A stretch of 64,000 nucleotides of DNA, taken from Myxococcota bacterium. Lineage in GTDB: Bacteria; Myxococcota; UBA727; JABDBI01. Position numbers and translations under genes: made by a program. Shown piece by piece: positions 1,363 through 64,000 of this stretch. Below the pieces are notes generated by a model, which saw only the letters and a program-made list of their open reading frames with translations, did not search any database and had not been told where the DNA came from. The DNA lies in contig JAZKCZ010000002.1 of the NCBI GenBank assembly GCA_040387835.1, forward strand, positions 581,818-645,817, written 5' to 3'. Numbering within the stretch: position 1 is the stretch's first letter; each line of letters begins with the position of its first letter.

Positions 1363-3144
1363 ATGGGCCAAATACAAATATTAAACGAAATTATTGCCAA
1401 TCAAATTGCAGCGGGCGAAGTGGTCGAGCGGCCAGCGTCCATCGTGAAAGAATTAATCGAAAACGCTTTAGACGCAGGTGCAACCCAAATTGATCTGCAC
1501 ATCATCGAAGGTGGCATCGCCAAGCTGGTTATCACCGACAACGGCTGCGGCATGGCGCCAGATGATGCCGTTTTGTGCTTTTCCAGATACGCCACCAGCA
1601 AACTTCGATCCATGAGCGATTTCGCCACCCTGAATTCATTCGGCTTCAGAGGCGAAGCCCTAGCCTCCATCGCATCCGTCAGCCGCATGAGTCTCACCAC
1701 CAGACAAGCGGATACAGTGCTCGCGACTAAAGTGGTCGTTGAAGGCGGTCGTATCTTAGAAGTAACCGAAGCCGGCGCACCTGTAGGCACACGCATTGAA
1801 GTCGAATCGCTCTTTTACAACACCCCGGCGCGCTTGAAATTTTTGAAAAGCCCACGTTCAGAAGCCAGCGCCATCGAAACCATTATGCGCCAAGCTGCGC
1901 TTTCCAAGCCGGCAGTGGGCTTTAGACTGCAAATCGACGCCACCACTAAGCTGGATGTTCGGCAAGCGCCAAGCGAAGCTCGCCAATTCGAGCGCGCAAT
2001 CTACTGCTTAGGCGAAGATACACGTGGATATTTATACCCCATCGATTTAAAAACCGACTTTCTAAGACTATCTGGCTATGTGGCCGCCCCATTGGCAACA
2101 CGCAAAGATAGCCTAGGGCTATACGTCTATGTGAATGGCCGTTTTGTGAAAGACAAACAGCTGGTTCAAGCCATTCGTGTTGCGTATAGAACCATCTTGG
2201 AAATCGGCCGCCACCCCATTGGTGCAATCAACATTGAAGTCGACCCTGAGGTGGTAGACGTCAACGTGCACCCGCAAAAGCTGGAAGTGAGATTCTCAGA
2301 ACCATCGAGAGTACAAAGCCACCTAATCCGCCTTCTAAGCGATTTTCTATCAACCACACCTTGGTTAAATTCCTACCGGGACCTCACCCCCAGCCCCTCT
2401 CCAGAATCTGGAGAGGGGAGAAGCTGGGCTTTAAGTCCCTCTCCACTTGGTGGAGAGGGATTTAGGGTGAGGCTACCCTCTCCCGATTTTGGCGAGCCAA
2501 AATCTCCCTCTCCCACAAGTGGGAGAGGGTATTACGTTCAGCATGGGCTGGGTGGCGCGGAGCGCTACACAGACCTTCGAGTGGTGGGGCAGATTGATTC
2601 TACCTATCTTCTTCTAGAAGGCGCGCGTTCTATGATCGTTTTGGATCAGCATGCAGCGCATGAACGGGTCGTATTCGAACGCGTCTGCGCACAAACCAAA
2701 CAAAACGGTGTTTCCTCTCAAGCTTTACTATTTCCTGTCTCCATCACGCTTTCTCCCGGGGATATGCAGACGCTGATCGAAAAGAAAGATGTCTTTTTGC
2801 CCTACGGCTTCGAAATCGAGCCCTTTGGCGATCACCAAGCGATCGTCAAAACCACTCCCGCAGGCCTTAAGTCGGAGTATGCCGAGACGATCATTAAGGA
2901 CACCCTGTCCGATTTACGAAACGCCGACCGCCCAGATGCGTTGCAAGAGTTCTCCGATCACATCTGCGCACAAATCGCTTGTCACACTTCCATCAGAGCC
3001 GGACAGCGCCTAGATAATTCAGAAATCCTAGCCCTATTAGAACAACTTGACGTTATCGACTACGCCGCGCACTGCCCACACGGACGCCCGGTAGTACGAG
3101 CGATACCTTTCACCGAGATCGCTCAATGGTTTCACAGGACTTAA
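1363..3144 (+). CDS. mutL: DNA mismatch repair protein MutL, with a 50-aa in-frame insertion in the linker
   Basis: N-terminal GHKL ATPase motifs (NQIAAGEVVERPASIVKELIENALDAGA, ITDNGCGM) and a C-terminal dimerisation domain. A miaA gene overlaps the 3' end, the classic mutL-miaA arrangement. Confidence 0.9.
   Translation: MGQIQILNEIIANQIAAGEVVERPASIVKELIENALDAGATQIDLHIIEGGIAKLVITDNGCGMAPDDAVLCFSRYATSKLRSMSDFATLNSFGFRGEALASIASVSRMSLTTRQADTVLATKVVVEGGRILEVTEAGAPVGTRIEVESLFYNTPARLKFLKSPRSEASAIETIMRQAALSKPAVGFRLQIDATTKLDVRQAPSEARQFERAIYCLGEDTRGYLYPIDLKTDFLRLSGYVAAPLATRKDSLGLYVYVNGRFVKDKQLVQAIRVAYRTILEIGRHPIGAINIEVDPEVVDVNVHPQKLEVRFSEPSRVQSHLIRLLSDFLSTTPWLNSYRDLTPSPSPESGEGRSWALSPSPLGGEGFRVRLPSPDFGEPKSPSPTSGRGYYVQHGLGGAERYTDLRVVGQIDSTYLLLEGARSMIVLDQHAAHERVVFERVCAQTKQNGVSSQALLFPVSITLSPGDMQTLIEKKDVFLPYGFEIEPFGDHQAIVKTTPAGLKSEYAETIIKDTLSDLRNADRPDALQEFSDHICAQIACHTSIRAGQRLDNSEILALLEQLDVIDYAAHCPHGRPVVRAIPFTEIAQWFHRT
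2382..2530. repeat. cluster of 3-4 palindromic units (CCCTCTCCAG-N3-CTGGAGAGGG type plus ATTTAGGGTGAGG), inserted in-frame in mutL
   Basis: Palindromes at 2394-2418 (cccctctccag aat ctggagagggg), 2437-2459 (ccctctccacttggtggagaggg, followed by atttagggtgagg at 2460-2472), 2485-2504 (gattttggc ga gccaaaatc) and 2506-2529 (ccctctccc acaagt gggagaggg). Translated in the mutL frame as PSPSPESGEGRSWALSPSPLGGEGFRVRLPSPDFGEPKSPSPTSGRG. Confidence 0.8.
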
Positions 3145-3989
3145 CCCCAATTGTAATCGCCGGCCCCACCGGCTCTGGCAAAAGTGCCCTGGCGATGAAA
3201 ATGGCCAAAGAGCTGGGCGGCGAAATTGTCTGCGCCGACAGCCGGCAAATTTACGAGCGCATGAGCATCGGCACTGCCGCTCCGAGCCAAGAAGAATATA
3301 TCTTGGTCAAACACCACGGCTTCGAGCACCTAGACCCTAAAGAAGTCTATAGCGCAGGCCGATTTGTGACCGATACAGACGCCTTTGTGCAAGAAATCCA
3401 ATCCCGCGGCAAAGTGCCCCTGATTGTCGGAGGCACAGGCTTATATCTACGAGCCTGGCGCTTCGGCCTAGCTGACGTGCTGCCCTCCGACCCTCAGGTG
3501 CGAGCAAGACTGGAACAACAAGATTTAAGCGATTTGTATCTAAAACTCCAGGAAGTGGACCCCGCAAGCGCAGCTAAAATCAAAGCCACAGACCCCGTAC
3601 GCATCCTGCGCGCCCTGGAAATCCTTGAAATCAGCGGCCAGCCCGCCAGCCAACTCAGACACACCGACTGGGCTCGCGAGCCGCGCGTCAATGCCCGCTG
3701 GCTTTTGCTTAAGCCATCGAAAGAAGAACTGGATCAAAGGCTCAAACAACGCGTCGATCAAATGTTCGAAGCCGGCTTAGTCGCAGAAGCTGTCGCTTTA
3801 AGAGACTACCTAGGCCCTGCAGCATCCCCAAAAGGTCTGTTGGGCACCCCTGGTTATGCAGAGAGCTTGGCACTCGTGGATGGACTACTAACCGAACAGG
3901 AAATGTTCGAAAGGACGTTCATCCGCCATAGACAATACGCCAAGCAGCAGGTTACCTGGTTTCAGAAGGAGAGTTGGTGGGCGCTTTAA
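3126..3989 (+). CDS. miaA: tRNA dimethylallyltransferase
   Basis: MVSQDLTPIVIAGPTGSGKSALAMKMAKELGGEIVCADSRQIYERMSIGTAAPS, a P-loop plus conserved MiaA N-terminus. Overlaps the mutL stop by 19 nt. Confidence 0.9.
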   Translation: MVSQDLTPIVIAGPTGSGKSALAMKMAKELGGEIVCADSRQIYERMSIGTAAPSQEEYILVKHHGFEHLDPKEVYSAGRFVTDTDAFVQEIQSRGKVPLIVGGTGLYLRAWRFGLADVLPSDPQVRARLEQQDLSDLYLKLQEVDPASAAKIKATDPVRILRALEILEISGQPASQLRHTDWAREPRVNARWLLLKPSKEELDQRLKQRVDQMFEAGLVAEAVALRDYLGPAASPKGLLGTPGYAESLALVDGLLTEQEMFERTFIRHRQYAKQQVTWFQKESWWAL

Positions 3990-9091: not shown

Positions 9092-9691
9092 ATGTACAGC
9101 CTGATTCAAAAACCAGCCCCTGATTTTAATGCCGAAGCTGTGATGGCTAACGGTGAATTTTCAAAAATTTCGCTTTCTAGCTTTAAAGACAAAAAATATG
9201 TCTGCTTATTTTTCTACCCACTAGATTTCACTTTCGTATGCCCATCTGAGATCATTTCATTTTCTCACCGCGCAAAAGATTTTGAAGCGCGCCAAACCCA
9301 AATTTTAGGTGTATCGGTTGATTCCAAATTTAGCCATTACGCCTGGAGACAAACGCCCGTGGACAACGGCGGAATTGGTGCGATTGAATTCCCGTTAATT
9401 TCCGACATCACCAAGGAAATTGCTCGTGATTATGGCGTACTAGTTGAAGATGCAGTCGCTTTGCGCGGAACATTCTTAATCGATATGGCTGGCGTTGTCC
9501 GTCACGCAACTTTGAACGATCTGCCACTGGGCCGAAATGTTGATGAAACCCTTCGCATGATCGATGCTTTGCAACACACTGAAAAATATGGCGAAGTATG
9601 TCCAGCAGGCTGGAGAAAAGGTGATACCGCGATGAAGGCTAATACAGCCGGCGTAGCATCCTATCTGAAAGAAAACGCTGCAAACCTATAA
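9092..9691 (+). CDS. ahpC: typical 2-Cys peroxiredoxin (AhpC/Prx1 family)
   Basis: Peroxidatic FTFVCPSEI and resolving VCPAGW motifs. 199 aa. Confidence 0.85.
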   Translation: MYSLIQKPAPDFNAEAVMANGEFSKISLSSFKDKKYVCLFFYPLDFTFVCPSEIISFSHRAKDFEARQTQILGVSVDSKFSHYAWRQTPVDNGGIGAIEFPLISDITKEIARDYGVLVEDAVALRGTFLIDMAGVVRHATLNDLPLGRNVDETLRMIDALQHTEKYGEVCPAGWRKGDTAMKANTAGVASYLKENAANL

Positions 9692-9709
9692 AAGCTAGGT
9701 TTCCAAAGT

Positions 9710-9752
9710 CCCCCTCCAGATCCTGGAGAGGGATTTAGGGTGAGGTCCCCTC
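9710..9752. repeat. palindromic element copy (ccccctccag atc ctggagaggg + atttagggtgagg) between convergent genes; possible bidirectional terminator
   Basis: Perfect 10-bp inverted repeat at 9710-9732 followed by atttagggtgaggtcccctc. Sits exactly between the ahpC stop (9691) and the stop of the minus-strand gene (9753). Confidence 0.75.
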
Positions 9753-10388
9753 TTAGCTGTTGCTTGATGCAGCTGGTGCACTAACGCCACCTTCTACCAC
9801 AACATTCACAGGAACAGCCACTGGAGCGCCACCACCTGGTGTTACAGGATTTGCAGGAGCTGCGGGTTCAGCGGGTGTTGCAGGTGTTGGGCTCGGTGCA
9901 GCGCCTGGGCCTACTGGAGCAGCGGGTGCTACAGGTCCTGGCGTCAAGGATACGCCGCCAGCTGGCATTGGAGCGATTGCTGAGTCTTTAGACACAATCG
10001 CGCCTTTAGCAGCAACTTCACCTTTGGAAGCCACTTGGGATTGTGATGAAACTTGCTGAGCTTTCGATTCGTGATGAAACAGAGCTTCAATTTTGCTGCC
10101 TAGATCTTGAAACGCAGCTTGAATAGCATGTAGATGAGGATGAGACACCTTCACTTCTACAGTTCCTTGCATTTGAGCTGAACCAGCGGCCATAGGAGCC
10201 ACAGGCGATTTCATCGCTTGCATCGGTGATTTAGGTTCAAAATGATCTTTAGCCGCAACTTTGCTTTCGAGTTTGGCTTCTGCTTTCGCAGGGGCAGCTT
10301 GTGTCGCAACTTGGCTTGCGCCTTTTGCAGCTTCCTGTGCAACTACAGTTTGGGATTTTGCAGGGATTACCATATCTTTTCCGCCCAT
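9753..10388 (-). CDS. low-complexity Ala/Pro/Gln/Lys-rich protein (hypothetical), paralog of the downstream gene
   Basis: 211-aa ORF starting MGGKDM. Strong RBS (AGGAGATAAAGAAC then ATG). Pro/Ala-rich C-terminus. Shares the MGG start and an A/K/Q/T/S-rich composition with 10511..10900. Confidence 0.55.
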   Translation of the reverse strand: MGGKDMVIPAKSQTVVAQEAAKGASQVATQAAPAKAEAKLESKVAAKDHFEPKSPMQAMKSPVAPMAAGSAQMQGTVEVKVSHPHLHAIQAAFQDLGSKIEALFHHESKAQQVSSQSQVASKGEVAAKGAIVSKDSAIAPMPAGGVSLTPGPVAPAAPVGPGAAPSPTPATPAEPAAPANPVTPGGGAPVAVPVNVVVEGGVSAPAASSNS

Positions 10389-59696: not shown

Positions 59697-60062
59697 TTGA
59701 TGTTAATGAAAATAATTTTGAATGCAGCCGGCTTTTTGACGGCCATATTAATCGTTCCTGGCATTCATGTTCGCAGTCATGACCATTGGCATTTGATCGG
59801 CATTGCGCTCATGGCGGGCCTTATCAACACCATCTTGGGGCCGATTCTCAAATTCTTCACTTTCCCCTTCATTTTTTTGACTTTGGGGCTGTGGATCATC
59901 ATTGCCAACATGATCATGTTTTGGTTCGCCGGCAGCATGGGACAGCAGTTTGGCTTTGGTTTTACCGTAGACGGATTTTGGCCAACCTTCCAAGGTGCGC
60001 TCATTGTGAGTATTGTCAATTTAGTCTTCGGCTTTCTGTTTAAAAGCGTTCGAGGTAAGTAA
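59697..60062 (+). CDS. phage-holin-4_2 / YvlD-like family small membrane protein
   Basis: 121 aa, 4 TM. LLVPGIHV...TLGLWIIIANMIMFW pattern. The stop overlaps the ATG of the giant downstream ORF (TAATG). Confidence 0.55.
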   Translation: MMLMKIILNAAGFLTAILIVPGIHVRSHDHWHLIGIALMAGLINTILGPILKFFTFPFIFLTLGLWIIIANMIMFWFAGSMGQQFGFGFTVDGFWPTFQGALIVSIVNLVFGFLFKSVRGK

Positions 60063-63000
60063 TGGGCAAAGGCAGTTTTATTGGTGGCGTTTTTGTTGCT
60101 GGCGCTGGAGAAATTATCCGGAGCCAAAACCCGGCACGCGCCTACGAAACTGTCTTTGAAACCAACGCTGACATCAGCCATGTGGCTAAAGCGGTGGAAG
60201 CTGCCGAAAAAGCACTGCCCATTTGGCGGGGACTTACTCAAAATGAGCGTGTCCTTGCGCTTAAATCCGTAGAAGCCGTGTTCAAAAAACGCGAAGAAGA
60301 TCTAGCCCAGCGCATCACGGCCGAAATGGGCAAAATTTTCACAGAGAGCCTCTTCGAAGCCAAAAACGTCAGCGGCCGCGTCTCTCTGACCGCCGAAGAA
60401 GGACTTAAAAGGGTTGCCACCGAACACCCGCCCGGCGCTGGTGAAACCAGATATCACGCTCAAGGCATCATGGCTGTATTGGGTCCCTATAATTTCCCAG
60501 CACACCTGATGAATTCGCACATCATCCCCGCCTTGATGACCGGCAACACCATTGTCGCTAAGCCCAGCGAATTATGCCCAGGCGTTGGCGAGCTGTACGC
60601 GGAATGCTTCGAAGAAGCTGGCCTACCCGCTGGCGTTTTCAACTTAATCCAAGGCCGAGGCGATATCGGCAAAGCCCTGGTTACCCACCCCCGCATTCGG
60701 GGCGTCCTCTTCACCGGCAGCTATCAAACCGGCCGAGCCTTAACAGAAATGTTGCTCGATCACCCACACAAGATCCTGGCGCTAGAAATGGGTGGCAAAA
60801 ATACTGCCGTGGTCTTAGATGATGCCGACTTATACCAATGCTTGGTCGAAATCAGCCAAGGCGCCTTTCAAAGCGCAGGCCAACGTTGCACCGCCACTTC
60901 CCGGGTGCTCATCGATCGTCAAGTAGCGCCCAAGCTGATCCCGGCCTTAATTCGCATGGCTAAAGAGTTCGTGCCAGCAGATCCAACGAACACAGACACC
61001 GTCTTAGGCCCCATGGCTGGCCGCGCAGCTCTAGAGCGTTACCTATCGCTGCTTGAAAAAGTACGTGAGTCAGCGGGCTGCAAAGTATTACTAGAAGCAC
61101 AAGTGTTACCAGGTGGCGCCTTTGTCACGCCAAGCGTTTACCAAGTCGAACAATTTGTAGACATCGAACTCTTCGGCCCGCATTTTGATATCCAATTATT
61201 TGACGGTCTCGATGAAGCGATCAAGCTTGTTAATCAAAGCGATTACGGCCTATCAAACTCTATCTTTACTCGAAGCGAAACCAGTTTTGAGCGCTTCTAC
61301 CAAGAGACCTACTCGGGCGTGTTAAATTGGAACCGCAGCACCAACGGCTTGTCGGGCAAAGCACCCTTTGGCGGCGTTGGCAAAAGCGGCAATCATCGCC
61401 CAGCGGGCATCGATGCCGTTCGAAACGCCACCTACCCGGTGATGGTGCAAAGCCTACCCTTCGGGCACGCGGAACCGCTTGCACCTTTGGCTCTTAAGTT
61501 CAAATCAGAACAGATTGGTTTAAGCGAGACGCTTGAAGACCTGATCAAAAGCCACGAACAAGAATTCGCAGCGCAGCGCTATCGCTATTTTGACCAGCCA
61601 CACGTACCAAAAGACATTCGCCTGCCAGCCTCAGAAGTGATGCTGCAGCGGCTGTACCAAGGCGATTTGGTCCCGCGGGAAAAGAAAGAACCAATAGTCG
61701 ATCTTTTTGCGTCAAAAGGGCCCTATTTAGTATCCATTGACGAAGAGCCCTTGGTTATTTTTGATGCAGCCAGCCAAATTGCGTCGTTGGGTTTAGGCTT
61801 TAGCGCAGGTCCTTTTCAAAAGGCACTGGACGAAGGCCAATTGACGGAGAGCTTGCTATCCAATGCCGCCGATATCAGTGGCGATAGCGAAGCTTATGAA
61901 AAACTTTTGCTTTCCAGAGCCGACAAAAGCTTAAATTACGTCTCGTTTACCACCAGCGGTGCCGCAGCGAACGAAAAAGCATTCGATCTTTGTCGTTTAA
62001 ATGGCCCAGGCGGTAAGCGAATCATCGCCTTTGAAGGCTCGTTCCACGGTCGCACCATGATGGCGCTGCACGCGACTTATAACCCTGAAAAGCGTAAAGG
62101 TTTCGAACTGCCCGGCTACGAAGTCACTTTCCTACCATTTGGCTCACTCGACGGCCTCAAAGAGGCGCTCGCCAAAGGCGACATGTGCTGCGTGATTGTC
62201 GAGCCGGTCCAATGTGAAGGCGGCGATAATTTTGCCAGCATCGATTTTTTCAGAGGCGTTAGGCAAATCACCCGCGACATGGGCGTGCCCATGGTCGTTG
62301 ACGAAGTACAAACCGGCTTCGGTCTATTCGGGCCGTTCTTTTATCACACAGCCTTTGGCCTGGAAAACGGCCCCGACTGCGTAACCTTGGCTAAAAAGGC
62401 CCAACTCGGCGTCGTATTATCCACTTGGCCAGACACACGTCCAGAGCACCCTCACCAGATTCAAATCCAAAAGGGTCTGATTCAAGCCAAAGCGGTATTG
62501 GAAGCACCTTTTCAAGATCTAGAACGCCAGATCGCTGACCGATTAGCAAAACTTCACGAAGCATTCCCAATGCTGGTCTCAAACCCACGTAACACTGGCT
62601 ACGCCTTTGCCTTCAACATGCCGACCCCTGCGCAAGCCAATCATGTGGTGAACCAACGTTTTAGTCGCGGCTTCATGGTTTATATCGCCGGCGTTCAAAC
62701 GCTGAGATTCAGAGCCAATATCGACACCACGCTGAAGGAAATCGACTTTCTATTCGACGCCTTGCATGGCGCCTTAAAAGGCACAGCACCCGCTAAAACC
62801 AATGTTGTTTCTCAGGCCGCCTTGCCGCTGATGGGCGGCATCAGCATTGAGCAATTTACCCCCGATCAATGGTCTTATTACGCCAATAATATCGAAGCCT
62901 TAGAACACGCGGCCTACGAGCCAGAGCGCCGCGACAGTATGGCATATTTAGAAAGCTGGCTGAAGCAGCCTAAATCCGTCGGCCTAATCGCCAAACAACG

Positions 63001-64000
63001 CGGCGAAGTCGTCGGCTTTGCCATTGGCGGGCCGCTCGAGCATTCTAAAGTAGACGGCCCGGTGCATGATCCCATGCGTGGGCTCGGCAATACTTTTTAC
63101 TCAACCGACATTGTGATTCATGAATCGCTGCGCGGTAAAGGCGTTGGTTACCATTTAAAAGCAGCGCAAATCGAAGCCGCAAAAAAACTAGGCTACGCCT
63201 ACATGAGCGGCCGCAACCGCGTGGGCGCGACGTCTGAAATCCAGCGCATCAACAAAAGCTTCGGCGCCTATACAGTGGCCGTATACGACCACCAATACGG
63301 CAGCGATGCACAAGCACTCTACTATCGCATCCCCCTCCTAAGACCAGCCCTCCCCTCTCCCCTCTCCAGTTCCTGGAGAGGGGCCGGGGGTGAGGTCAAC
63401 TGGGCCGACTCAATCCAAGCCCCCCTAGGAAAACACTCCCCCGAAATCCTAGCCGACATTCAAAAAGGCATCTTCACCACGGCCGTCGGCACCAAGCTAA
63501 CGCTTTCCAATTTCATCACCCCTGACATGGTGCGCTACACCGAACTTTTGCGCCATTTGATGCCTAGATCATGCAAGCATCTCTACTTCACCTCTGGCCG
63601 AGATGAGATGGTAGACAAGGGTCTACGCTCGCTCAAAGTCAGCCGCCCCGGCGCCGAAATTGCCATCGGTCTCAAAGGTCAATATCTAGGCCACACCACC
63701 TGCTCTGCCAGAAGCCTAACCGACCCGGGCGATTATCAAAAACCATTCAGCTGGTTCGACTGGCCACTCGCCGAAACGGCAGAAGACATCGAAGCCTTAA
63801 TCACGGAGCACGGCGCCGATAAAATATTCGGCATCGTCATCGAACTCATGGGCGAAATGACCGGTAAAGTCATATCCCCAGATTTGCTCAGACGATTAAG
63901 CGATATTCGTGAAAAGACTGGCATCCCACTCGTGTTCGTCGAAACAGCTTCCAGCTTAGGCCGAAGCGGCGAAAGTTTATTCCTCAGCGACTCGCTCCCC
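60062..64000 (+). CDS. giant multidomain fusion protein (ALDH / class-III aminotransferase / GNAT / second aminotransferase-like domain), 3' end beyond the window
   Basis: Open frame of at least 1313 codons with no stop. N-terminal AstD-like succinylglutamate-semialdehyde dehydrogenase (VLGPYNFPAHL...ILALEMGGKN...FQSAGQRCTA...APFGGVGKSGNHRP). AT-III domain (IIAFEGSFHGRT, DEVQTGFG). GNAT (LRGKGVGYHLKAAQIEAAKKLGY). Then FTSGRDEMVDKG...VFVETASSLGRSGE. Confidence 0.7.
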   Translation, partial: MGKGSFIGGVFVAGAGEIIRSQNPARAYETVFETNADISHVAKAVEAAEKALPIWRGLTQNERVLALKSVEAVFKKREEDLAQRITAEMGKIFTESLFEAKNVSGRVSLTAEEGLKRVATEHPPGAGETRYHAQGIMAVLGPYNFPAHLMNSHIIPALMTGNTIVAKPSELCPGVGELYAECFEEAGLPAGVFNLIQGRGDIGKALVTHPRIRGVLFTGSYQTGRALTEMLLDHPHKILALEMGGKNTAVVLDDADLYQCLVEISQGAFQSAGQRCTATSRVLIDRQVAPKLIPALIRMAKEFVPADPTNTDTVLGPMAGRAALERYLSLLEKVRESAGCKVLLEAQVLPGGAFVTPSVYQVEQFVDIELFGPHFDIQLFDGLDEAIKLVNQSDYGLSNSIFTRSETSFERFYQETYSGVLNWNRSTNGLSGKAPFGGVGKSGNHRPAGIDAVRNATYPVMVQSLPFGHAEPLAPLALKFKSEQIGLSETLEDLIKSHEQEFAAQRYRYFDQPHVPKDIRLPASEVMLQRLYQGDLVPREKKEPIVDLFASKGPYLVSIDEEPLVIFDAASQIASLGLGFSAGPFQKALDEGQLTESLLSNAADISGDSEAYEKLLLSRADKSLNYVSFTTSGAAANEKAFDLCRLNGPGGKRIIAFEGSFHGRTMMALHATYNPEKRKGFELPGYEVTFLPFGSLDGLKEALAKGDMCCVIVEPVQCEGGDNFASIDFFRGVRQITRDMGVPMVVDEVQTGFGLFGPFFYHTAFGLENGPDCVTLAKKAQLGVVLSTWPDTRPEHPHQIQIQKGLIQAKAVLEAPFQDLERQIADRLAKLHEAFPMLVSNPRNTGYAFAFNMPTPAQANHVVNQRFSRGFMVYIAGVQTLRFRANIDTTLKEIDFLFDALHGALKGTAPAKTNVVSQAALPLMGGISIEQFTPDQWSYYANNIEALEHAAYEPERRDSMAYLESWLKQPKSVGLIAKQRGEVVGFAIGGPLEHSKVDGPVHDPMRGLGNTFYSTDIVIHESLRGKGVGYHLKAAQIEAAKKLGYAYMSGRNRVGATSEIQRINKSFGAYTVAVYDHQYGSDAQALYYRIPLLRPALPSPLSSSWRGAGGEVNWADSIQAPLGKHSPEILADIQKGIFTTAVGTKLTLSNFITPDMVRYTELLRHLMPRSCKHLYFTSGRDEMVDKGLRSLKVSRPGAEIAIGLKGQYLGHTTCSARSLTDPGDYQKPFSWFDWPLAETAEDIEALITEHGADKIFGIVIELMGEMTGKVISPDLLRRLSDIREKTGIPLVFVETASSLGRSGESLFLSDSLP
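63352..63396. repeat. palindromic element copy (cccctctccag ttc ctggagagggg + ccgggggtgaggtc), in-frame inside the giant ORF
   Basis: Perfect 11-bp inverted repeat at 63359-63383. Translated as PSPLSSSWRGAGGEV in an interdomain position. Confidence 0.75.

Follow-up and report, generated by a model that had tools for sequence, protein, structure and literature searches.

The mutL gene in a 64,000-nt stretch of a Myxococcota metagenome-assembled genome (MAG; contig JAZKCZ010000002.1, positions 581,818 to 645,817; this whole stretch is referred to as the window) contains a block of palindromic DNA that is translated in frame. What this block is, how it came to lie in a housekeeping gene and what it does there are the questions raised by the locus. 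The block almost certainly belongs to the BoxC / PIT / TMECO family of intrastrand-triplex motifs, which is among the most widespread of the short bacterial repeats and whose origin, spread and function have long been open. It is probably a selfish or neutral cluster of such units that occupies the linker of MutL; the units may be the flanks of cassettes encoding a DUF559 nuclease, and the mutL copies derivatives of them.

The repeat block and its host genes

The block, its components and the other copies in the window are positioned as follows (ORF, open reading frame):

1363..3144 (+): host gene mutL (593 aa), intact; endonuclease-type MutL in which DQHAAHERVVFE and CPHGRP motifs are present
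2382-2529: repeat block within the 593-aa mutL ORF; two complete inverted units and one tail-less hairpin
2382..2418 (-): unit u1, complete; on its own strand CCCCTCTCC-AGATTCT-GGAGAGGGG-CTG-GGGGTGAGG; B-like spacer; TMECO design shifted by one base
2436..2472 (+): unit u2, complete; TCCCTCTCC-ACTTGGT-GGAGAGGGA-TTT-AGGGTGAGG; ninth triad T-A*A; A-like spacer
2476-2484 (+): orphan C-rich arm CCCTCTCCC
2485-2504 (+): 20-nt mini-hairpin GATTTTGGC-GA-GCCAAAATC
2506..2529 (+): unit u3, a tail-less hairpin CCCTCTCCC-ACAAGT-GGGAGAGGG
9709..9745 (+): complete intergenic unit of the u2 subtype; TCCCCCTCC-AGATCCT-GGAGAGGGA-TTT-AGGGTGAGG
60062..64000 (+): second host ORF, a fusion protein of >1,300 aa that runs off the end of the window
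63359..63395 (+): complete unit of the u1 subtype, in frame in the fusion ORF and translated as LPSPLSSSWRGAGGEV

A unit is ~37 bp long and consists of a 9-bp hairpin with one C-rich and one G-rich arm, a spacer of ~3 nt and a 9-nt G-rich tail that mirrors the G-rich arm. On the plus strand u1 reads CCTCACCCC-CAG-CCCCTCTCC-AGAATCT-GGAGAGGGG and is followed by 17 nt of spacer up to u2; the two are inverted relative to each other, with outward-pointing tails (inverted repeat I1, 36 nt, 78% complementary). CTA separates u2 from the orphan arm, the mini-hairpin (inverted repeat I11) follows this arm directly, and u3 (inverted repeat I9) begins after a single T. In MutL, u1 is translated as LTPSPSPESGEG and u2 as PSPLGGEGFRVR. 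All four C-rich arms in mutL share one frame, in which they read Pro-Ser-Pro, with spacings of 42, 39 and 30 nt.

The hairpin pattern CCCTCTCC-N(3-30)-GGAGAGGG gave five matches in the window, corresponding to four distinct hairpins (2395-2417, 2437-2459, 2506-2529 and 63360-63382), and none in 100 dinucleotide shuffles. The 8-mer CCCTCTCC was observed 12 times against 1.05 expected; GGGTGAGG was observed four times against 1.03 expected, and every occurrence adjoins a hairpin. A scan that allowed one mismatch recovered the tail-less hairpin at 2506-2529 and four complete units, one of them on the minus strand (2382-2417) and three on the plus strand (2437-2472, 9710-9745, 63360-63395); 30 shuffles gave none. 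The block folds at -53.3 kcal/mol as DNA (z = -8.2 against shuffles) and at -100.5 kcal/mol as RNA (z = -7.5). A search of the whole window at Rfam gathering thresholds found no known RNA family.

The Pfam domains of MutL are HATPase_c_3 (residues 25-122), DNA_mis_repair (216-329) and MutL_C (408-550), and the repeat-encoded residues (~341-390) fall between the latter two. In an AlphaFold2 model built with 20 homologues, the predicted local distance difference test score (pLDDT) is below 50 for residues 335-394, with block means of 27-35, and the domains on either side are modelled with confidence; the insert is therefore predicted to lie in an unstructured linker. This linker is 60 aa long, compared with 29-60 aa in relatives, and since only ~10 of its 60 residues are not repeat-derived, the repeats now are the MutL linker.

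The second host ORF combines aldehyde dehydrogenase, class-III aminotransferase and GNAT domains with a second aminotransferase-like region, and its homologues are few (28 at E <= 1e-10, mostly from Myxococcota MAGs). The unit at 63359-63395 lies in a variable linker after the GNAT domain and is read in a different phase from the mutL copies. At this site the linker is 13-23 aa long in homologues and 20 aa in the window, of which ~14 are repeat-encoded. Judged by these linker lengths, unit-encoded residues substitute for linker sequence in both host genes and do not lengthen it. The unit is preceded by a 7-nt duplicated half-arm, CCCCTCT; the direct duplication CCCCTCT-CCCCTCT at the 5' arm (63352-63365) looks like a slippage footprint. 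The remaining unit, at 9709-9745, fills the gap between the convergent ORFs 9092-9691 (+) and 9753-10388 (-). Of the four complete units in the window, three are thus read in frame within ORFs, as is the tail-less hairpin.

The 120 closest MutL homologues were scanned for peptides that a complete unit could encode. Such peptides were found in two of them, this protein and P0020, in both cases in the linker, and 118 had none. The nearest other homologue is 69% identical, and the near relatives lack the insert; their linkers are also Pro/Ser-rich and variable in length. P0020 (58% identical; locus L001) carries two units at a different linker position, namely CCCTCTCCC-GCAAGGC-GGGAGAGGG-ATTAA-GGGTGAGGG and its inverse 30 nt later, and the difference in position points to an independent event in a second MutL lineage. 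Within this set of homologues the mutL array is lineage-specific.

A first-pass annotation of this DNA had described the block as three to four near-identical palindromes inserted in frame in the disordered linker between the ATPase and dimerisation domains of MutL, with further copies near 9710 and 63352. The palindromes are real and lie where they were placed, as the shuffle controls confirm, but they are better described as two complete inverted units, an orphan arm with a mini-hairpin and a tail-less hairpin. The block is in frame in the ORF 1363-3144 and encodes exactly the peptide that was quoted; the Pfam boundaries and the low pLDDT agree with the proposed position in the linker; and the family does recur at both further sites, intergenic at the first and in the fusion ORF at the second. 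Two of the checks suggested there, an alignment of orthologs and a fold of the RNA, gave the lineage-specific distribution and the very low folding energy reported above. Its description of the repeats as mobile or amplified is plausible for this locus.

Membership of the BoxC / PIT / TMECO family

The same annotation did not recognise the consensus as a described family. This part does not stand, as the units are BoxC/PIT/TMECO, known from E. coli and >260 other genomes (PMC4666352; PMC5100583). TMECO is the same element as BoxC, named in the 1990s, and as the PIT element of the Maher laboratory (PMC4666352; Hoyne/Maher 2000 cited therein). It was defined by the strict pattern CCCTCNCCC-N3-6-GGGNGAGGG-N3-GGGNGAGGG (Holder et al. 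2015, PMC4666352). By that study E. coli K-12 has 23 copies, Enterobacter asburiae LF7a has 143, and a total of 3610 were counted in 262 proteobacterial genomes (PMC4666352). The same sequences were described by Kaplan et al. 2016 (PMC5100583) as a G-quadruplex/hairpin/duplex switch under the name of 'HPG' motifs. The E. coli sequence forms a triplex as an isolated strand, as seen by circular dichroism and nuclear magnetic resonance; none was detected in duplex DNA or in vivo (PMC4666352).

Units in the window share with this family the CCCTCTCC(C) arm, the loop, the (G)GGAGAGGG arm, the spacer of ~3 nt and the GGGTGAGG(G) tail, and the E. coli sequences in Table 1 of PMC4666352 show the same three blocks. 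They are likewise dispersed and multi-copy. The strict TMECO pattern had no match in the window. A design shifted by one base, CCCCTCTCC-N7-GGAGAGGGG-N3-GGGGTGAGG, has two exact matches there, u1 and the unit at 63359, and u2 and the unit at 9709 share that layout except that T-A*A takes the place of the ninth C-G*G triad. The difference from the published pattern thus lies in the register, which is C4TCTC2 and not C3TCTC3, or in a ninth triad of T-A*A, and on comparison of these blocks the window units are a sequence variant of the TMECO design and not a different architecture. In u1, u2 and the 63359 copy, nine allowed triads each are present in the purine-motif register (G*G-C, A*A-T, T*A-T).

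In 156 instances from many phyla, the base flanking the G-rich arm was paired with the one flanking the tail that should be its triplex partner. The two covary at the loop-proximal position (chi-square 147, p = 3e-27) and also at the distal one (p = 1e-7); three of the four control pairings gave p >= 0.8 and the fourth gave p = 0.0005. The window units in this set (u1, u2 and the 63359 copy) all conform. This arm-tail covariation argues that the window units are genuine members of the family in a variant register.

Two spacer types occur in the family, A (TTA-like) and B (CCG-like), with one of each per inverted pair, and the u1/u2 pair follows this rule: the u1 spacer, CTG, is B-like and that of u2 is A-like (TTT; also written ATTTA). 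The pair differs in that its tails point outward, whereas those of E. coli pairs point inward. The host also differs, being a Myxococcota MAG of ~49% GC and not a proteobacterium. E. coli copies have been reported as exclusively intergenic, including all 23 in K-12 (PMC4666352; PMC5100583), whereas here only one of the four complete units is intergenic and the other three lie in frame in genes, as does the tail-less hairpin; this difference is one of behaviour and not of architecture.

The exact pattern CCCTCTCC-N5-11-GGAGAGGG-N2-6-GGGTGAGG was searched for in one genome per species, a search in which ~0.15 chance matches are expected by estimate. It was found at at least 120 genome loci, which among the matches listed are spread over most bacterial phyla (Proteobacteria, Chloroflexota, Planctomycetota, Cyanobacteria, Verrucomicrobiota, Bacteroidota, Acidobacteriota, Omnitrophota, Myxococcota and others). 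The pattern is also present in at least 120 viral or proviral contigs of IMG/VR (L210-L329), three of which, among the matches listed, have an adjacent DUF559 gene. In Pseudomonas crudilactis (L012, 233-755) and P. chlororaphis (L037), a repeat of ~151 bp occurs three times head to tail, and each repeat holds one unit preceded by ...cacctcggtcggcc.

The turnover of units is visible at the E. coli hrpB-mrcB site (TMECO 1+2; L204-L207), which exists in four states among complete genomes. The site is filled in K-12; a second allele is 102 bp shorter and lacks the pair; in strain N5D43 a single tail-less hairpin, CCCTCTCCCTGTGGGAGAGGGG, is what remains of the collapsed inverted pair; and in a fourth allele the whole unit of ~115 bp is in the opposite orientation. 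The collapsed N5D43 allele has exactly the anatomy of u3. Comparison of filled and empty alleles at this site gave no clean target-site duplication. In the 14 nt on either side of 149 units, conservation is limited to a pyrimidine at -1/-2 and to G at +1.

The first-pass annotation had compared the block with Rickettsia palindromic elements (RPEs), as a repeat tolerated in coding sequence. RPEs are said to be palindromic repeats that lie in frame in Rickettsia genes. The resemblance in tolerance is upheld, as units are usually stop-free in five frames and occur in frame in other genes; in both systems, in-frame palindromes add or replace surface or linker peptide while function is kept, and intergenic copies exist as well. 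The likeness is one of behaviour only. By their descriptions RPEs are ~100-150 bp long, AT-rich and confined to Rickettsia, whereas the unit is ~37 nt, GC-rich and present in many phyla; they are also not known to have a mirror-repeat tail or sequence similarity to it. We know of no autonomous partner gene for RPEs, whereas the units flank DUF559 genes.

A parallel in organisation is offered by repetitive extragenic palindromic (REP) sequences and their doublets (REPINs), which are reportedly associated with REP-associated tyrosine transposases (RAYTs). Both are GC-rich hairpins of ~35 nt, often in inverted doublets and lacking target-site duplications, with hundreds of non-autonomous copies beside a few copies of a small flanked gene. 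The GTAG or CGTC head of REPs is absent from the flank profile of the 149 units, and the units carry an additional mirror-repeat tail. Moreover, the flanked gene is a Vsr-like DUF559 gene of the PD-(D/E)XK type here and a Y1 transposase of the IS200/IS605 type in REPs, and REPs are species-specific in sequence whereas the unit is nearly the same across phyla. The units also differ from MITEs (miniature transposable elements with inverted repeats), as they do not show the combination of terminal inverted repeats and a target-site duplication.

In-frame copies and DUF559 cassettes

In-frame copies were sought among 154 units from loci L001 and L003-L122, of which 152 come from the genome sample and two from the P0020 mutL. 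Open frames with at least 100 codons on each side surround 27 of the 154, although many of these frames are spurious (high-GC genomes), and Pfam domains on both sides confirm an in-frame unit in ~8 of 152 (5%). The confirmed positions include Mfd (between UvrB_inter and MFD_D3), the NAD-dependent DNA ligase LigA (within the adenylation region), an ABC transporter (in the linker from membrane domain to ATPase), a molybdopterin-binding/cytochrome c fusion and the MetRS of two betaproteobacteria. Five of the six unit frames are stop-free in 78-96% of units and the sixth never is, as it always contains TGA (GGG-TGA-GG); 81% of the residues in unit translations are P, G, R, L, E or S. Units are thus tolerated in coding DNA because most of their frames are usually open and their peptides have a composition compatible with disorder. 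In-frame colonisation of genes by BoxC/PIT/TMECO units appears to be unreported.

A second feature that recurs next to the units is a gene or domain of DUF559 (PF04480), which has a Vsr-like PD-(D/E)XK fold. DUF559 was found in seven of the 120 unit-centred genome loci, in every case within 37 bp of a unit and nowhere else in these loci. In the reverse test, 80 metagenome loci encoding relatives of unit-adjacent DUF559 domains (41-69% identity) were examined. Units lie within 250 bp of the DUF559 gene in 58 of the 80 loci, and on both sides and inverted in 39, figures that describe one DUF559 clade because the query alignment was built from unit-adjacent genes. Near DUF559 there are 3.6 units per kb, 51-fold more than the 0.07 per kb found at greater distance. 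The usual cassette has its forward unit 10-70 bp upstream of the gene, its reverse unit between -9 and +50 bp downstream, and tails that face inward. Among relatives on viral contigs, five of the ten with 42% identity or more are accompanied by units within ~150 bp, on both sides in all five, and none of 68 DUF559/Vsr-like relatives of at most 40% identity has a unit within 1.5 kb.

Whole cassettes are also found in frame within genes. In three betaproteobacterial MetRS genes a DUF559 domain bracketed by two inverted units is read in frame between the anticodon-binding and tRNA_bind domains (Pfam):

L026:1777-4515 (-): MetRS with DUF559 cassette
L005:2-2161 (+): MetRS with DUF559 cassette
L124:1826-4771 (+): MetRS with DUF559 cassette

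Another cassette lies in frame between RecA1 and RecA2 of an HrpA-like helicase (L132:3053-6715, +). In a peptidase M14 gene (L198:3749-4822, +), the M14 profile is matched after DUF559 only in its later part (positions 82-190), and this profile break suggests an insertion within the M14 domain. Two N6/N4 DNA methylases, an HsdS and an Aminotran_5 protein (L173, L125, L126, L184) are also encoded in one open frame with DUF559; in these the host domain is on one side only, and they may represent fusion or read-through. One further case looks like hsdM by eye. The presence of whole cassettes in frame in unrelated host genes indicates that the unit-gene-unit block travels as a whole, or is at least kept together. 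The two units that flank one DUF559 gene differ in their loops, and are therefore not a duplication made at insertion.

The E. coli K-12 representative is ycjD, whose product ends ...RRSPSP*; the CCCTCTCCC at its stop codon forms a degenerate unit hairpin. Downstream lies a fragment that resembles a second DUF559 3' end, and then, 168 bp away, TMECO #9. The locus is that of fabI (envM), where BoxC is reported to have been first noted:

L123 2205-2420, equal to E. coli K-12 1351204-1351419: fragment downstream of ycjD and TMECO #9

A comparison of E. coli strains with and without ycjD was set aside, as the eefABC efflux island occupies this position in strains that lack ycjD.

DUF559 has been grouped with Vsr and the homing endonuclease I-Bth0305I in one PD-(D/E)XK clade (PMC3424549), and is thus related to the EDxHD/Vsr-like homing endonucleases (I-Bth0305I, PDB 3r3p). 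As with homing elements, DUF559 cassettes enter conserved housekeeping genes (MetRS, HrpA-like helicase) and leave the frame intact; the difference is that no intron or intein is involved, the cassette being translated within the host protein and bounded by structured DNA repeats. A search of solved structures matched DUF559 only to 3HRL, an uncharacterised Neisseria protein, and the only NCBIfam label was 'DUF559 domain-containing protein'. In a search for defence systems with PADLOC, YcjD and the L063 protein had no match and the MetRS-embedded copy had only weak partial ones (best E = 9e-6). To our knowledge, no DUF559 protein has a demonstrated nuclease activity or target. The pairing of units with a small DUF559 nuclease gene also appears to be new: a literature search, which covered open-access papers only, found no report of in-frame BoxC/PIT/TMECO copies or of a link between the repeat and DUF559.

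Origin of the mutL array

Taken together, these observations suggest how the array may have formed. The units would be the flanking inverted repeats, either as ends or as a homing site, of small cassettes encoding a DUF559 Vsr-like nuclease; gene-less pairs and solo units, such as those in mutL, would be deletion derivatives, and units without cargo may be propagated in trans or by recombination. We infer that a DUF559 protein is the enzyme that moves or maintains the units, and that these are the ends of the cassette rather than its homing target. In mutL an element would have been inserted, followed by decay and by loss of the ancestral linker, to leave two complete inverted units and a decayed third that resembles a collapsed inverted pair. 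The linker would act as a flexible tether with little constraint on its sequence, and hence tolerate the repeats. That the array is a tolerated passenger in the linker is very likely, whereas the chances that this particular array has a DUF559-linked origin are about even. The broader proposition, that BoxC/PIT/TMECO elements are the ends or homing site of DUF559 cassettes that insert in the linkers of housekeeping proteins and are translated like an intein that never splices, with the mutL array as a decayed footprint, is as finely balanced.

Several observations count against this account. An empty-site allele of mutL was not found; the linker is hypervariable and the closest relative only 69% identical, so that insertion into this mutL is deduced from the behaviour of the family. 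There is no DUF559 gene in the 64-kb window (best hidden Markov model E-value 0.53), and the array does not match the unit-DUF559-unit layout, which makes it at most a cargo-less derivative. The outward tails of u1 and u2 match an extra upstream pair, reverse then forward, that is present at many cassettes, and not the core flanks. The association in the reverse test belongs to a single DUF559 clade. The flanks of 149 units show no target-site duplication (shared k-mers 3.10, against 3.02 in shuffled pairs), which means that the mechanism is not that of a classical cut-and-paste MITE. In E. coli, no association with mobile elements (Holder et al. name phage and plasmid) and no stable triplex in vivo were found (PMC4666352). 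Finally, the data fit both units as cassette ends and homing of DUF559 into pre-existing inverted pairs, and do not separate the two.

The strongest competing explanation is that units spread independently of DUF559, through a RAYT-like single-strand transposase, hairpin template switching or gene conversion, that DUF559 genes are secondary colonists of inverted pairs and that the mutL array was never linked to a nuclease. This would account for the solo state of most units, for the low share of unit-centred loci with DUF559 (only seven of 120), for the missing target-site duplications, for the lack of DUF559 in the window and for the differing loops of the two units around one DUF559 gene; ycjD, moreover, is absent from 2083 of 5426 E. 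coli genomes, yet the species carries units. It is harder to reconcile with an adjacency of DUF559 that is very tight and orientation-specific and with whole cassettes in frame inside unrelated genes such as those for MetRS and HrpA, and no other gene recurs beside units in the loci examined, although no scan for RAYT genes was made. We consider it possible but unlikely.

Two further explanations concern the mutL block itself. Co-option of the array, as a structure-prone on/off contingency site in mutL (a mutator switch) or as a structure that modulates expression of mutL and miaA, would be in keeping with the very stable predicted structures, with the second MutL lineage that has units in its linker, and with the raised local instability of TMECO units and their link to local deletions in E. 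coli (PMC4666352; allele N5D43). The single frame shared by the four C-rich arms would likewise keep slippage between arms in frame, but the chance of such an arrangement is ~0.04 and it is also expected from simple in-frame duplication. Only two of the 120 closest homologues have units, which speaks against a conserved requirement; intergenic DNA and many unrelated genes contain such units too, and earlier work found no promoter, terminator or polymerase-blocking effect of PIT elements in vivo (cited in PMC4666352). Co-option is accordingly regarded as improbable. Still less credible, and close to refuted, is the proposal that selection on the protein for a Pro/Ser/Gly-rich linker produced the palindromes as a by-product, or that they are an artefact of MAG assembly. 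Related MutL linkers are indeed Pro/Ser-rich and of variable length, and the sequence does derive from a MAG. However, the same 37-nt design, with identity at the level of DNA, is shared by the copy at 9709-9745, which is non-coding, and by that at 63359-63395, which is read in another frame; this rules out convergence at the protein level. The design recurs at at least 120 genome loci across phyla, and the arm-tail covariation is a property of DNA. A chimeric join would rarely leave the mutL ORF intact with its flanking domains conserved.

The reading preferred here, in which the mutL block is a tolerated cluster of BoxC/PIT/TMECO units descended from cassette flanks, has consequences beyond this gene. 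Units and whole nuclease cassettes that lie in frame in essential genes would be a general source of linker and domain insertions. The pairing of one DUF559 clade with the units names a candidate enzyme in a model organism, E. coli YcjD, and gives a possible job to DUF559, a large family with no assigned function; the association, if confirmed experimentally, would explain what BoxC/PIT elements are. A MutL linker that consists almost wholly of repeat-derived, structure-prone DNA matters for annotation and possibly for the stability of a mismatch repair gene.

Around mutL, the downstream miaA gene (3126-3989) overlaps it by 19 nt (3126-3144), and the mutL-miaA order is kept at the P0020 locus L001. 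A small Cys-rich ORF of 92 aa with an N-terminal hydrophobic stretch (1062-1340, +) lies just upstream of mutL.

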